Source: Vectrevirus NIC06P3. From it: a stretch of DNA of 45,947 nucleotides. Of this stretch, positions 4,575 to 25,299 are shown piece by piece; position 1 is the stretch's first letter; each line of letters begins with the position of its first letter. Position numbers and translations under genes: made by a program. The stretch is taken from the sequence record OZ035778.1. The stretch is one strand, 5' to 3'. The notes under the pieces were generated by a model that worked only from the letters and a program-made list of their open reading frames with translations, made no database searches and had not been told where the DNA came from.

Positions 4575-4597
4575 ATTTAGGTGACACTATAGAAGAG
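4575..4597 (+). promoter_or_regulatory. SP6-type phage promoter (exact SP6 consensus)
   Basis: ATTTAGGTGACACTATAGAAGAG. Confidence 0.85.
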
Positions 4598-6011: not shown

Positions 6012-8006
6012 ATGGCTTTAACCAAAGCTACAACAGTTAATGCATATCAGGGGCGTCCACCCGTTGTAATCACTGATAGCGTCGAAGATAAGTTAATGGA
6101 TGGACGTGCTGGTCTTCGTAAGCACTTTGGTGCTGTTGGGGACGGGCAACATGATGATACAGACGCCTTTGAAAAATGGATGGATTGCCTAACAGATGCA
6201 ACATATAAGCGTTTAGGGGCATTTTCGGACGAACACCCATATATGCTACAGAAAGGGCCACAGCTCATGTTAGAAGATGGGGCTTTCGTGTATGCTGGCA
6301 AAGGTTTGAACATCCCTACCCATCATGCCTTTGTTCTAAACATAATTGGACAAAGTTCCTTATCTACAAAAATTATCCTACCAGAAGATGTGTACTTCTT
6401 GGATTTAGATAACAACCCTGTGTTTTCTTATATGTCAGGTATTACGTTCCATGGTGGACTAGGTGCTGTACGCATGAAGTCTAAGTCATGCAATGCAACA
6501 AGTATGCACATATTTGAGCGTCTACGTATGTCTAGGTATAAGCAGTGTGCCTTTAGTAACAACTCAATAGATATGCCTTACGTTAAAATCAGAGACTCAG
6601 TGTTTATGGGAGATGTATCCAGAGAGACAATTGGACTGTGCTTATCTGGCCTGTCTGCTGGTAGTGATATCACAGGGAATCAGTTCACTGATAACAGGTA
6701 TAATCTCAAGTTAGCTGTTGCAGACAATGGTGTAGAACGTAATGGACCACCAACGCCTCTAAACATAGTAGGTAATGATTTCTATCGGACAGGACACCGC
6801 TCAGGTGCATCTTATGATATTTGGATTGAACCAGGTAAAACAGCTACAAACTCAGGACGGGGACTTGTTTTACAACGTAATAAGTTTGGGCAGGAGAACC
6901 TAAAGAGTCCAGATGCACACATTCTCATTGCAGATAGTGGGACAGGGCAAGGTGGTGATTTAAATGGGGACAGAATGCATGTAGAGACAAAATCTTCTGG
7001 ATTTGTGTCAGGCATTCTTTCAGAAGGCAACAATGTTAACTCTATCAATGGAAGTTACACTGCACCATACATCCGTAGCTTCACACCTAACTTTGGTAAC
7101 AATAAGATCCATGATATTTATGACAATGGAATGCCGTCTCGTATAGTAGAGTTCGCAGGTGGTATTACGCAAAGTGAAGTGGTTAATATATCTCGCACTA
7201 ATATGCTTGAGATTGATCAGTCTCTTGCCCTCCAGAAAGGGGATGTACCTAATTTATTGTCTAACCTAGATGGTGTGTTTCGTGTAAGGGATGATTTGGG
7301 TCTGTTGGCAGGACACCCTCAAGTGCACGACACACCAACCGGTTCTCAGATGTCAGATTTTCTGCATGTATATAAAGGACCAACATCTAGTCTTGCTGTT
7401 GCAGAAGCAACGCGCTTGGCTATTGATAACTCCTATGGAGGTAAAAATGAGGCAGCAGAGTTCACTATGACAACGGAAGATGGACGTGCAGTTGCAACGG
7501 TGACAGGGCTTGTTGCTGGTGATACTTTCTGGTTAGATTTTGAGGTAAAGAGATCTGCTGACAATGCGGCCCCTCGTGTGCTCTTCGAGGTACTAGATTC
7601 AAGTGCGAGTACCTTACTTCTTCGAAGGACTATACTGTTAGATGCGAAGCAGAGATGGCAGAAAGTTGTGCTACCTTTTGTGCCAAACAGTTCTGGTAGT
7701 ATCTTTGTTCGCTTTAAGGCGAAAGGTTGGACACCTTCTAATAAGAAGTTTCAAGTAGGAAACCTTAATGTATACCGCAACCATACACCAGTTAACACTG
7801 GACATAATGGAGGTTTATCTTCCTCTTGGAGTTCACAGCACATCCTTATTGGGTCTTACCACTTATGGGTAGATGCAACTGGCGCATTGCGTATCAAAGA
7901 TGGCGCACCTACGTCTGTTAACGATGGTGTCATCGTTGGCAGTCAGTCAGAAAGTGTTAGCCAACAAGTATCGGGTGATGGTATACAAACCATTGATAGT
8001 GTCTAA
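6012..8006 (+). CDS. tailspike 2, pectate-lyase-like beta-helix (probable polysaccharide depolymerase)
   Basis: HFGAVGDGQHDDTDAFEKW motif typical of right-handed beta-helix tailspikes; RBS AAAGGAGG; MALT N-terminus. Confidence 0.65.
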   Translation: MALTKATTVNAYQGRPPVVITDSVEDKLMDGRAGLRKHFGAVGDGQHDDTDAFEKWMDCLTDATYKRLGAFSDEHPYMLQKGPQLMLEDGAFVYAGKGLNIPTHHAFVLNIIGQSSLSTKIILPEDVYFLDLDNNPVFSYMSGITFHGGLGAVRMKSKSCNATSMHIFERLRMSRYKQCAFSNNSIDMPYVKIRDSVFMGDVSRETIGLCLSGLSAGSDITGNQFTDNRYNLKLAVADNGVERNGPPTPLNIVGNDFYRTGHRSGASYDIWIEPGKTATNSGRGLVLQRNKFGQENLKSPDAHILIADSGTGQGGDLNGDRMHVETKSSGFVSGILSEGNNVNSINGSYTAPYIRSFTPNFGNNKIHDIYDNGMPSRIVEFAGGITQSEVVNISRTNMLEIDQSLALQKGDVPNLLSNLDGVFRVRDDLGLLAGHPQVHDTPTGSQMSDFLHVYKGPTSSLAVAEATRLAIDNSYGGKNEAAEFTMTTEDGRAVATVTGLVAGDTFWLDFEVKRSADNAAPRVLFEVLDSSASTLLLRRTILLDAKQRWQKVVLPFVPNSSGSIFVRFKAKGWTPSNKKFQVGNLNVYRNHTPVNTGHNGGLSSSWSSQHILIGSYHLWVDATGALRIKDGAPTSVNDGVIVGSQSESVSQQVSGDGIQTIDSV

Positions 8007-8356
8007 AAGTAGATAGGCTGTACGGCAGAATACGCAGGAACTTATTGCTTCATATCGTAACGTGAAGAAATAATTTTGCATCGTCTGCGTAGCAGTTAGT
8101 ATCTTAGTGTAACAAAGGGCTGACCTAGGTTGGCTCTTCATGAAGGAGGCAACATGATTTGGATTCACACGTATGGTGTAGGGCCGTTCAAGAAGAAGGT
8201 ACTCAGGAAGATTCATGAGTCCGAGGAATCAGCCTTAGCCAGCCAGAAGGTACTTGGTGGTACTGTCCAGTGCTACATGAAGAAGCCACAAGGCTTTAGC
8301 TTAGTATAATACAATAGTTAATATGAAAGGTTAGGTGTATGTTGTAGGGAGGTTTA

Positions 8357-8620
8357 ATGGTCATTGTCTCTAGTAAGAAGAAGAAGCAGAGTGAAATGGA
8401 TAAGATAGTGCAGACAGGTCTTGCTGCTAAGTCTGGTCAGCCACTCAATACTGGCACTAGTTCAATGGACAAGATCGTTGAAACAGGGAAACAGGCAATG
8501 TCTGGTGGGTTGGACAAGGGTGCACGGAAGCAGGCTGAGTTCAATAAGATTATTGATTTCGGTAAGGAAGCTAAGAGGGAATTCTTAAGACCATCTGCGG
8601 TAGAACCAGTAAGACACTAG
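8357..8620 (+). CDS. hypothetical protein with internal repeat MDKIV(Q/E)TG
   Basis: 87-aa ORF, Lys-rich; location in the genome right-end region; coding status uncertain. Confidence 0.3.
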   Translation: MVIVSSKKKKQSEMDKIVQTGLAAKSGQPLNTGTSSMDKIVETGKQAMSGGLDKGARKQAEFNKIIDFGKEAKREFLRPSAVEPVRH

Positions 8621-8670
8621 GTAGATTCTTAGTCCTGTACAAGGATTAACCAAAGTCAAAATTTTGATAT

Positions 8671-9590
8671 AGGCGTGTGTGAGCTCTCTCGCCCTCGCCC
8701 TCGCCGGGTTGCCCCCCCCCCCCCCCGCCCCCCCCCGCCGCGCCGGGGGCCGGGGGGGGGGCGGGGGGCGGGGGGGGGGCCGGGCCCGCCGCGCGCCGCC
8801 ACCCGGGAGGAGGCCCCCGCGGCCGTAGACGCGCTGTGCCTGAGCGTCCCCGCCGCGGCCGAGACGGCCCTGCGGCGTCTCCTGGTCGGGGAGGCCGCGG
8901 CGCCTCAGCGCGAGGACGCCGGGTCGACGGCGGCGGCGCCGGCCGGACCGGGCTCCTCCTCGGGCGAGCCCGGCGAGGGCGCGCTCACGGACCAGGCCAG
9001 CCAGAGCCCCAGCGCGTAGAGCGGCAGACCCATCACGAGACGGGCGACGCCCAGGGCCGTCGCCGCGTCCGCGAGGTAGAGCGGCACCTGCACGCCCAGC
9101 CGCAGCGCGAAGACGGCCGCCATCACCCAGGTGGCCGCCGCGTAGGCGCGCCGGCGGCGGGGGTCCGCACGCCATGCGGTCCCCTCCCCGCGCACGAGGC
9201 CGAGGATCAGGCCCACCACGGGCCAGCCCGCGAGGATCGAGACGAGGAACGCGAGGCCGTAGCCGGCGTTCGTGATGAAGCCCCAGAGGTAGTAGTCCCG
9301 GGCCTGCCCCGTGGTCAGGGCCACCGCCACCGAGAGCACGACGACGACGAGCCCGGCCAGGACCTGCGCGGGCGACTGGCGCTGCGCGAGCCGGACCACG
9401 CCCATGAGGACGGCCACGCCCGCGGCGGCCACGCCCGAGGGCCACACCTGCTGGGCCCCCGTGGTTTGGGGGGGTCGTTGTGGTCTGAATCCGCGCGTTT
9501 TCACAATGTAAATTTTTTTTTTTGAGGGGTGGTTGTGCCCGCCCCCCCCGCCCCCCGGGGGGGGCCCCCCCCCCCCCCCCCCCCCCATAT
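8671..9590. other. foreign high-GC block bounded by C/G homopolymer tracts (probable chimeric/artefactual insert)
   Basis: Abrupt composition shift; C16/C8/G10-type runs at 8711-8790 and a C22 run at 9565-9586; T11 run at 9514-9524; minus-strand frame reads like a truncated polytopic membrane protein. Confidence 0.6.
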
Positions 9591-9659
9591 GGGTGGCCTT
9601 GGTGATTGGCTTAGGAATTGGGCTGGGCGGGGCCGTCTTCGACGGGTTGGCTGGGGGGC

Positions 9660-10236
9660 TTGCCTTGTACTATCTTAGTGATACACAAGGGAGGACGCCT
9701 AGGAAGCGCTAGGGCACGCCTTAGTATTGGACAAGGTGATTGCCTTAGTGCAACCACTTTGGGCTTACACAGGCCGTTTTAGGGCCATTCTGGGCTATTG
9801 ACAGGGTGGGCGTGGGTGGGCTATCTGTTCGTTTCGTTCACTCCGCTTGCGCTACGTTCACTCGCTCACGTGTACCTTAGGTTATTGCTTGATGGGTAGC
9901 TTAAGTTAACCTTAGTGGATTGCCTTAGTTAAAGCCTTAGTGCTTCACTTAGTATCAGCTTAGTAGTGTACCTTAGTTGGTCTTAGTTCCTTATCTTAGT
10001 GATTGCACATGCAAGCATATAAGATGCCAATAGGTCGCGGTCGGTAGACCGCTAAAGAAAGAGAATAGTAATAAGATGCAGCAGGAGGAACACCAGAAAC
10101 CTAGCCAACCTAACCTATCCTAGCCTTGTATCTATTGCTTATCCTTAGTCTCACACGTTAGACAACCTAGGTTTATATTAGTAGTTGTGACCTGTATCAC
10201 ATAAATAATCTATCTTAGTGAAACTTAGTGTTGACA
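9660..10236. repeat. array of short CTTAGT(G) repeats in the genome left-end non-coding region
   Basis: At least 15 copies of (C)CTTAGT(G), eight of them within about 100 bp (9900-10010); analogous to the short repeat arrays near T7 termini. Confidence 0.55.
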
Positions 10237-10259
10237 CAGGCAATCAACAGGTGTACATT
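10231..10259 (+). promoter_or_regulatory. host sigma70-like early promoter
   Basis: TTGACA, 17-bp spacer, TACATT. Confidence 0.55.
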
Positions 10260-10410
10260 AGCAATCACTGAGGCGGACCTAGCAAGCTGCCTCAGGTTAT
10301 AAGCAGGAGAATTGATGCGTAAGCCATAGCTAATGGATGTAGTCGCATGAAGGCTTGAGTAAGGGGCCGTTTAATACCTTCTTCCTCTGGAGACAAAGCT
10401 TATAGCACTG

Positions 10411-10424
10411 CTCTTTAACAATTT
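10411..10424 (+). promoter_or_regulatory. conserved early-leader motif CTCTTTAACAATTT (candidate RNase III processing site)
   Basis: Identical 16-mer GCTCTTTAACAATTTG recurs at 11026-11041; resembles my recollection of the T7 R0.3 region (CTCTTTAACAATCTGG). Confidence 0.35.
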
Positions 10425-10741
10425 GCTTAGTGTAACCTATGTATGCCGTGGTTAATTACTTATTGAATGAGGAATTAGCTATGAATTACGAAGAAATGTA
10501 TGAAGCCTACTTCAATGCACTTGATGAAGGAGAAGAAGCATTATCTTTCGCTGAGTTTGTGGAGGCTTTATCATGACATTAAATAACCGTGAGCTATCCG
10601 TTCTCTTCACTCTGTTATGCTACATGATCCGTAACAACGAATTGCTTACAGATGACGAGTTGGCACTATATCACCGCTTTCTGAATGAAGGTTGGACCGA
10701 TACAGTTAACCAGAAACGTGATTTGATTAAGGAGTTAAGCA

Positions 10742-10966
10742 ATGTTTAAACATGAAATCTTCTTCGAGGCAGGAAGTGAAGCACTACGACTACTAGAAGA
10801 GATGGAACAAGCTGGTGTAGCTGTTGACATCACAACCTTTCTTCTGGATTACAACAGAGACTATTATAGTGTTACCTTAGTGACTGAGTATGATAATCAG
10901 GTAATTACCGAGTATCTGGGTAGTGAAGATTATGATTACGATGAAGTAATCACAACAAACTTCTAA
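10742..10966 (+). CDS. hypothetical early protein, strongly acidic
   Basis: 74-aa ORF with RBS AAGGAG; D/E/Y-rich C-terminal half. Confidence 0.45.
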   Translation: MFKHEIFFEAGSEALRLLEEMEQAGVAVDITTFLLDYNRDYYSVTLVTEYDNQVITEYLGSEDYDYDEVITTNF

Positions 10967-10974
10967 ATTAACCA

Positions 10975-11003
10975 TTGACAACCACGGCATACAAGGTTAC
11001 ATT
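10975..11003 (+). promoter_or_regulatory. host sigma70-like early promoter
   Basis: TTGACA, 17-bp spacer, TACATT; upstream of ocr. Confidence 0.55.
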
Positions 11004-11132
11004 AAGCACATAGCCGAAAGGCAACGCTCTTTAACAATTTGGATAAAGCTTCTTAGTCTGGCGAGGTTAGACCTAGGGTATTCTTTTGAGTACCCTATAA
11101 TGTAACCTAACTAACTAATGAGGATTAATAAC

Positions 11133-11486
11133 ATGGCTATGTCTAACATGACTTACTCTCAGGTTTACAACACTGCTCATGCTGCACTGGTTGAACGCGT
11201 ATGGGATGATGCCATTGATTGTATTGATAACGCACATGATGCAATCCATGAGGTAGCGGATGGTGCTGTACCAGTCTATTATGCTAACATCTTCTCAGTG
11301 ATGGCGAGTGAAGGTATTGATCACTTCTTCGAAGACTCCGGCCTGATGCCAGACACTAAAGATGTGACGGTAGTATTGCAAGCCCGTATCTATGAGCAAC
11401 TTACAATCGACCTGTGGGAATGTGTACAGGATATGATTGATGCGTACATCGACTCAGCCGAATACTCAGAAGAAGAGGAAGAATAA
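11133..11486 (+). CDS. ocr: Ocr (gene 0.3) DNA-mimic anti-restriction protein
   Basis: MAMSNMTY..., [31 protein letters not shown] and [15 protein letters not shown], with acidic EEEEE tail, closely match T7 Ocr as I recall it. Confidence 0.85.
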
Positions 11487-25260: not shown

Positions 25261-25266
25261 TTGATG

Positions 25267-25299
25267 CCCTGTCTGCCTTAGTGTAGGCAGGGTCTTTTG
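25267..25299 (+). terminator. intrinsic terminator
   Basis: CCCTGTCTGC / GTAGGCAGGG 10-bp stem with two G-U pairs, then TCTTTTG. Confidence 0.55.

Follow-up and report, generated by a model that had tools for sequence, protein, structure and literature searches.

The short-repeat array at the left end of phage T7 was reportedly described by Dunn and Studier together with the T7 sequence in 1983, and to our knowledge no function has since been assigned to the arrays that adjoin the direct terminal repeat (DTR) in T7-like phages. In T7, three copies of CCTAAAG lie in the 160-bp repeat, ATCTGTT follows right after it, the array occupies positions 175-332 and the early promoters come next; all 11 copies are on the + strand. 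Yersinia T7-like fPS phages carry repeats between the left repeat and P1 and between P12 and the right repeat, and the number of copies ranges from 11 to 34 among close relatives (PMC5923468). Here, we describe an array of CTTAGT(G) words at positions 9660-10236 of a 45,947-nucleotide stretch of Vectrevirus NIC06P3 (record OZ035778.1), which as a whole we call the window. A full-text literature search, with a scope that left out the original SP6 and K1-5 genome papers, returned no discussion of CTTAGT or CCTAAAG arrays.

Judged by its sequence and layout, the CTTAGT array corresponds in the SP6 group to the left-end array of T7. It shows all testable defining features of T7-group arrays beside the DTR, and the window brings no new kind of element. 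The added value of the comparison lies in quantified conservation, concerted word switching and recurrent adjacency to promoter -35 hexamers, which make a minor old question experimentally approachable. Three constraints that can be tested follow from it: selection maintains the word together with its orientation and 12-bp phasing, the word changes in concert between related genera, and a copy sits at the -35 hexamer of the first host promoter in several lineages whose words differ.

A phased, one-orientation array beside the terminal repeat

Window positions 9660-10236 hold 14 exact copies of CTTAGT on the + strand (9674, 9720, 9744, 9911, 9924, 9936, 9948, 9959, 9972, 9982, 9995, 10144, 10214 and 10224) and none on the - strand. 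A sequence-only reading of this DNA had counted at least 15 copies in about 580 bp; the density stands, with the count corrected to 14 exact copies plus two or three degenerate ones, namely CTTAGG at 9876, CTTAAGT at 9900 and ATTAGT at 10177, the last of which is CTTAGT in relatives. The base after the hexamer is G in seven of the 14 copies, and the base before it is C in seven of 14. The frequency far exceeds what composition predicts, so that the first of the refuting conditions set for the sequence-only reading does not hold: 0.16 copies are expected from the genome and 0.52 from the local composition (Poisson P ~1e-22 and ~1e-15), and 5000 dinucleotide shuffles of the same interval gave a mean of 0.52 and never more than 4. 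Outside 8000-11200, CTTAGT stays at background, with 10 copies on the + strand (12 expected) and 17 on the - strand (15 expected); 3 of the 10 + strand copies away from the genome ends are intergenic, a small number.

Eight of the copies, which the same reading had placed in about 100 bp, fall within 90 bp (9911-10000), at spacings of 13, 12, 12, 11, 13, 10 and 13 bp (mean 12.0; 84 bp from the first copy to the last). Tandem Repeats Finder called no tandem repeat at 9911-10000, where the spacers vary in sequence and length. It does not consist of head-to-tail units at least ~70% identical, as a tandem repeat born of slippage would.

The window is a circularly permuted Vectrevirus (K1E/K1-5-like) podophage genome, assembled from the small terminase gene onward. 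Positions 9590-10480 are 88-92% identical to the first ~900 bp of Vectrevirus genomes, including fTuEco01, K1E and mutPK1A2; all long open reading frames (ORFs) and all 11 SP6-type phage promoters in the window are on the + strand, and GC content stays at 40-50% apart from one block of ~0.9 kb at 57-65%. The best matches to Vectrevirus, the 11 promoters, a terminase with a PF11123 domain and the verified terminal repeats of relatives place the genome among Autographiviridae phages that have short exact terminal repeats and a T7-type terminase.

The physical left end lies at 8683. SP6 and fTuEco01 start with TCTC(TC)GSCCTCGSCCTCGCCGG, the same sequence stands at window 8683, and the K1-5 and mutPK1A2 records start a few bases into it. 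In all SP6-like phages the repeat ends in ...GGGCTA|TCTGTT, which places the right DTR boundary at window 9823. Owing to the circular permutation the DTR is present once, and it amounts to ~272 bp of phage DNA after removal of a foreign insert at ~8714-9582; matching of prefixes to suffixes gives DTR lengths of 174 bp in SP6, 234 in K1-5, 286 (annotated) in mutPK1A2 and 160 in T7. The repeats had been thought to lie just inside the left terminus. They are indeed beside the genome end, but that end is at 8683 and not near 9600, a misplacement that arose because foreign DNA sits in the DTR. As 9660-9823 belongs to the DTR, the interval 9660-10236 lies partly inside and partly beyond the repeat. 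The features around the junction are as follows.

8103-8633, + strand: three CTTAGT copies (8103, 8300, 8628), the weaker right-side set, within the final 580 bp of the genome before the DTR
8648-8682, + strand: conserved 35-bp element directly left of the DTR, AACCAAAGTCAAAATTTTGATATAGGCGTGTGTGAGC, near-identical in SP6, K1-5, mutPK1A2 and VR702
8683-9823, + strand: DTR, from TCTCTCGCCCTCGCC... to ...GGGCTA, placed by homology to the ends of SP6, K1-5 and mutPK1A2
9674-9749, + strand: three CTTAGT copies within the DTR (9674, 9720, 9744)
9800-9829, + strand: TTGACA-N18-TATCTGTT at the right DTR boundary, containing ATCTGTT, from sequence and alignment
9876-9906, + strand: two degenerate copies ahead of the array (9876, 9900)
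9911-10000, + strand: phased array of eight copies, 90 bp long, starting 88 bp beyond the DTR
10002-10052, + strand: two inverted repeats able to form hairpins, right behind the array, from folding and RNAalifold
10144-10229, + strand: scattered copies at 10144, 10177 (degenerate, ATTAGT), 10214 and 10224
10231-10259, + strand: first predicted host-type (sigma-70-like) promoter, TTGACA-17-TACATT, conserved in relatives
10426-10431, + strand: CTTAGT in the early leader, 4 nt past a conserved GCTCTTTAACAAT box that resembles an RNase III site, as in T7 R0.3

Thus, about 20 copies in one orientation surround the junction: 3 left of the DTR, 3 within it, 8 in the array and 4-5 toward the promoter. 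Two copies abut the -35 hexamer of the 10231-10259 promoter, and the last, at 10224, touches it (CTTAGTgTTGACA), which bears out the earlier placement of the repeats directly upstream of the first host promoter. The second predicted host promoter, at 10975-11003, has no CTTAGT copy.

The analogy with T7, also raised from the sequence alone, holds in detail: in both phages copies in the repeat, an array and then promoters follow one another, with every copy on the + strand. T7 and T3 share with NIC06P3 the family, a word in one orientation, copies in the repeat, an array phased at 12-13 bp followed by host promoters, and a few copies left of the right-hand repeat. ATCTGTT stands at position +1 from the repeat end in T7 and T3 and is also found at the DTR boundary here. 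The two arrangements differ in the word itself (CTTAGT(G) versus CCTAAAG) and in the start of the array, which lies 8 bp past ATCTGTT in T7 but 88 bp past the repeat in NIC06P3. The array of NIC06P3 is followed by two conserved hairpins, unlike that of T7, and T7 has phiOL between array and host promoters, whereas NIC06P3 has no phage-type promoter there. A promoter scan of the window found no SP6-type promoter between 4595 and 11595, so that counterparts of T7 phiOR and phiOL are lacking near this junction. The nearest SP6-type promoters are at 4577-4595 and 11595, which leaves the last 4 kb at the right end and the first 2.9 kb at the left end free of them. We also rejected a link between the array and phage promoters, as no SP6-type promoter lies near it and CTTAGT is not part of the promoter consensus.

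Conservation of the word and its exchange between lineages

To assess conservation, we used 28 distinct left ends, taken from annotated records and from a scan of viral contigs for exact matches to the invariant hairpin that follows the array. The CTTAGT array is present in SP6, K1E, K1-5 and 24 other relatives, so that the second refuting condition set for the sequence-only reading, absence from relatives, does not hold either. SP6, K1E, K1-5 and other Zindervirus and Vectrevirus phages have the same word, the same register relative to the hairpin and the same copy abutting the promoter, and their arrays are, on alignment, orthologous to that of NIC06P3; they differ only in their spacers and in having 6-8 copies versus exactly 8, and NIC06P3 additionally has foreign DNA in its DTR. 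Across the 28 phages, the mean majority fraction is 0.96 for hexamer columns (24 of 48 invariant) and 0.67 for spacer columns (0 of 43; Mann-Whitney p=1.6e-13). All 17 sequences with a full array of the Vectrevirus type keep the copies at eight fixed distances from the hairpin (-122 to -38). In relatives from the Zindervirus and Klebsiella phages the array numbers 6-7 copies, 12 bp apart. Where copies have decayed, the remaining ones stand 21-24 or 33-35 bp from each other; these distances are multiples of the 12-bp unit, so that the register is preserved. The arrays of relatives contain essentially no minus-strand copies, and their terminal repeats contain 1-4 CTTAGT copies each. The right end is also marked: in eight relatives the last 600-700 bp before the right-hand repeat hold 2-4 copies on the + strand and none on the - strand, and in five of the eight a copy sits at -54 to -67 from the repeat. 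Because motif columns, register and orientation are kept while spacers diverge, the hexamer, its orientation and its phasing are under purifying selection, which lets the spacers drift.

These patterns bear directly on the notion that the array has no function and arose from slippage in replication or from recombination close to the end, or is mere spacer. Such an origin would be in line with the variable number of analogous repeats in close Yersinia phages (PMC5923468), but in the CTTAGT array both number and register are fixed. The word is near-invariant against diverging spacers, the register holds across genera, the orientation is absolute and the units are not identical tandem copies. We regard this explanation as highly improbable.

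More distant phages keep the layout and change the word. Three more distant Molineuxvirinae share an element of the 8648-8682 type left of the repeat. In Proteus phage PM85, CTTAGT is still the word. The left end of Lelliottia phage phD2B (its 150-700) has no CTTAGT; instead CATGATG occurs 9 times in 700 bp, always on the + strand; the copies fall within the repeat, form an array that follows ...GGTATCTGTT and overlap a -35 hexamer (TTGCATGATG). The left end of Klebsiella phage K22PH164C1 has (CC)ATAGTG 10 times in its densest 700 bp, with none on the - strand and CTTAGT absent there; at its 1700-2100 the word reads CCATAGTG, and one copy stands at the first host promoter's -35 (ATAGTGgTTGACA). 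K1-ULIP33 combines two words: its array is made of CTTAGT, and ATAGTG occurs near its promoter. CTTAGTG, CATAGTG and CATGATG form a series with steps of one or two bases. Beyond the Molineuxvirinae, each phage checked has its own word at the same place, on the + strand only: CCTAAAG (11 copies) in T7, C[CT]TAAAG (11) in T3, CCTACAG (5) in K1F, CCATAGG (7) in gh-1, and AGGCTA (8) and CCTTATGG (5) in Era103. Collectively, these comparisons indicate that related genera exchange the word at all positions together while the layout is kept. The switches among Vectrevirus, Tuodvirus and the Klebsiella K22 group offer a handle for finding the reader and the role of the T7 array.

Another reading is that the words recruit a host DNA-binding protein, such as a nucleoid-associated or replication factor, to the DNA that enters first. 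The left end does enter before any phage gene is expressed, as is established for T7, and the sites are clustered, phased and oriented. Against this, phages of the same host differ in their word (T7, K1F and K1E in E. coli), and close relatives that grow on related enterobacteria switch words. No E. coli factor that recognises CTTAGT is known to us, and no search aimed at one was made. Recruitment of a host factor therefore strikes us as improbable.

The copy at the first promoter recurs as well. In the relatives, 17 of 31 predicted promoters have CTTAGT abutting the -35 or in the spacer; nearly all of them are the first promoter of their phage, and they combine the word with four different spacer and -10 sequences. 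In gh-1 the word abuts the -35 of the annotated A1 promoter (CCATAGGaTTGACA), and in T7 a variant word overlaps the A1 -35 (TTGACTTAAAG); T3 and K1F show no such adjacency. In all, the word is adjacent to a -35 in 4-5 of 7 lineages, which a rough estimate of ~0.1 per lineage makes unlikely by chance.

This recurrence brings in early transcription: a phage protein, made early or delivered with the virion, might activate, shut off or insulate the left-end promoters used by host RNA polymerase, with the dense array as a nucleation site, sink or roadblock behind the junction pause site. It is the sole reading that accounts for the copies beside the -35. CTTAGTg abuts the TTGACA of first promoters with four different bodies, the words of K22PH164C1, phD2B, gh-1 and T7 take the same position, and every copy is oriented along transcription. 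However, most copies lie 230-560 bp upstream of the promoter, in the DTR or at the right end, the second promoter does without a copy, T3 and K1F lack the adjacency, and no candidate regulator was found. On balance, we consider control of early transcription the main rival to the reading favoured below, though an unlikely role.

A broader proposal is that one protein, found throughout the Autographiviridae, reads a lineage-specific heptamer (CTTAGTG, CATAGTG, CATGATG, CCATAGG, CCTAAAG and others) in the DTR, in the array and at the first-promoter -35, and so couples end processing to promoter occupancy. We put this forward only tentatively, and with some doubt.

Junction processing or packaging as the favoured role

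The reading we favour, with a probability of roughly 0.4, is that the copies are double-stranded sites for one co-evolving phage-encoded protein, which would act in processing of the concatemer junction or in packaging. Two considerations shape the reader. First, phages of E. coli and Salmonella differ in their word (T7, K1F and SP6/K1E), which points to a phage-encoded reader and not a host one. Second, the array region has no significant RNA fold (z=+0.44) and no Rfam match at E<0.04 (both weak matches fall in the foreign insert), so that it reads as a series of linear double-stranded sites. We accordingly rejected a structured RNA or DNA for the array and retained it for the two downstream hairpins, both of which fold.

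Four observations suggest a role at the junction. The copies bracket and enter the DTR. They also follow the ATCTGTT at the repeat boundary (within 9800-9829), which we take to be the class II pause and termination heptamer of the T7 concatemer junction. Packaging of the T7 type depends on signals in cis at the junction: for T7 phagemids, both a pac site and the terminal repeat have to be present in cis (PMC13236587). Finally, the two-sided layout of the repeats has been reported in Yersinia T7-like phages (PMC5923468). In T7, the class II signal is present at the concatemer junction, which also has E. coli promoter activity (bioRxiv 10.64898/2026.02.12.705533); that preprint cites Lyakhov 1997 and He 1998, and the junction pause is reported to be needed for concatemer processing.

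Under the favoured reading, a single sequence-specific protein encoded by the phage would bind the CTTAGT words, co-evolve with them and, in a further step, act on the concatemer junction. It might label the junction's left side for terminase, in cutting or in duplication of the terminal repeat. Alternatively, the array could announce the approaching genome end to a motor arriving from the right. Since the left end of T7 is ejected first, the motor would, by the last-in-first-out rule, cross the array just before the terminal cut. There is precedent for such a signal in lambda cosQ, a short oriented sequence that the motor reaches before the terminal cut. Multiple oriented sites near a packaging cut site are likewise known from the R sites of lambda cosB and from SPP1 pacL and pacR; the spacing and number of sites differ from those of the CTTAGT array, in which binding is presumed. 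Short phased direct repeats, also overlapping a promoter, occur in plasmid R1 parC and in the pSM19035 heptads, bound by ParR and omega, but NIC06P3 is a lytic linear phage with no partition genes, and its spacers vary from 4 to 7 bp.

The prime candidate for the reader would be the small terminase subunit.

30-329, + strand: small terminase subunit, T7 gp18-like (Pfam PF11123 DNA_Packaging_2, E=2.4e-16)

Eight sites at 12-bp spacing (~96 bp in total; 84 bp, or eight helical turns, from first to last) could wrap around a ring-shaped small terminase; a structure search returned no PF11123 relative with a solved structure. If the small terminase does read the word, the step of DNA recognition that is missing from T7-type packaging would be defined, and phagemids and transducing particles for K1, K5 and Salmonella phages would become easier to design.

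Several points weigh against the favoured reading. When the proteome was compared with those of ULIP33, K22PH164C1 and phD2B, all proteins followed overall relatedness, the small terminase included (82%, 68% and 69% identical). The most conserved sequence specific to the junction is the 8648-8682 element, which could carry pac recognition alone. Plasmid-packaging maps of T7 and T3 (Chung and Hinkle in 1990, Hashimoto and Fujisawa in 1992) reportedly locate the essential signals in the repeat and in its left-hand neighbouring DNA, outside the left-end array. A packaging role leaves the copies abutting the -35 and those in the early leader unexplained, and the pairing of a CTTAGT array with ATAGTG promoter copies in K1-ULIP33 suggests that the readers of array and promoter may differ. 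The 11-34 copies in Yersinia phages (PMC5923468) further speak against a strict ring geometry in general.

Replication offers another use for sites beside the DTR, either as primase clusters that fix the last lagging-strand primer or as origin iterons. The position beside the repeat fits Watson's concatemer model. In T7, units of the right half of the array (CCTAAAGACC, CCTAAAGACA) contain TGGTC, GTGTC and GGGTC on the lagging-strand template, all of them known T7 primase sites. SP6 primase, however, is reported by Tseng et al. in 2000 to recognise 5'-GCA-3', and neither CTTAGT nor its complement contains GCA or TGC; GC follows only 2 of the 14 copies. Primase sites thus fit half of the T7 array and not CTTAGT, and we rejected them for the CTTAGT phage. 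As for iterons, 9600-10500 contains no initiator gene of the Rep type and no AT-rich unwinding element, and the nearest ORFs are tiny early genes. Taken as a whole, a replication role seems very unlikely.

Similarly, CUUAGU repeats might act at the RNA level, in a transcript that starts at the TTGACA-N18-TATCTG site of the DTR or reads through the junction. The promoter activity of the T7 junction, the conserved TTGACA 18 nt ahead of TATCTGTT, the early-leader copies beside RNase III-like boxes (10426 and 11052) and the compensatory changes in the hairpin after the array are all in its favour. Yet the array RNA is without significant structure and without an Rfam match, the class II signal upstream should stop read-through by the phage polymerase, and stable transcripts of the T7 junction region are not abundant (bioRxiv 10.64898/2026.02.12.705533). 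An RNA-level element is, in our estimation, more improbable still.

Neighbouring elements and the foreign insert

The flanks of the array are themselves conserved. The 35-bp element at 8648-8682, which contains a CAAAATTTTG palindrome, was matched in 130 phage records from Vectrevirus through Proteus and Lelliottia phages, and is a likely site of terminase cleavage or pac recognition. At the right DTR boundary, GGGCTATCTGTT is kept in 12 of 12 aligned relatives, and TTGACA-N18-TATCTGTT (9800-9829) is conserved in all SP6-like phages examined. A variable pyrimidine-rich stretch separates the DTR boundary from the degenerate copies.

Of the two hairpins after the array, the first, ACATGC-AA-GCATAT (10007-10020), covaries, with three pairs showing compensatory double changes in RNAalifold; its pairing is kept through three or four sequences (ATAGCT/AGCTAT, ACATGC/GCATGT and, in Proteus PM85, ACAAGC/GCTTGT). 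The second, GCGGTC-GGTA-GACCGC (10037-10052), shows no change across the 28 phages. The pair (10002-10052) may be DNA or RNA hairpins used in junction processing. The interval between hairpins and promoter holds a cluster of four CCTANCC words (10098-10127), which Tandem Repeats Finder gives as six copies of AACCT; this cluster is kept in Vectrevirus and SP6 relatives and is missing in Klebsiella-type relatives.

In the early region, a second RNase III-like box at 11021-11041 is followed by CTTAGT at 11052. Both this box and the one at 10405-10425 contain GCAnnGCTCTTTAACAATTTG, the box of T7-group RNase III sites, and CTTAGT comes 1-11 nt later in each. Far from the junction, a terminator-like hairpin at 25262-25298, CCCTGTCTGCC-TTAGTG-TAGGCAGGG followed by TCTTTT, carries CTTAGT in its loop. 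This copy is one of only three intergenic + strand copies away from the genome ends.

The foreign insert at ~8714-9582 comprises ~870 bp of 65-75% GC flanked by long poly-C and poly-G runs. Its site, ~30 nt in from the true left end, is exactly the C-run of a conserved palindrome, CCCCATA(T)GGG, and the CTTAGT repeats are untouched. The insert had no match among 50,697 phage records, and its 222-amino-acid minus-strand ORF had no Pfam match. The probable cause is a chimeric assembly in which homopolymers formed the bridge; homopolymer runs in a terminal repeat can pull foreign DNA into an assembled phage genome. Klebsiella phage K22PH164C1 shows G14...G14 at the same spot (its ~1377-1445).

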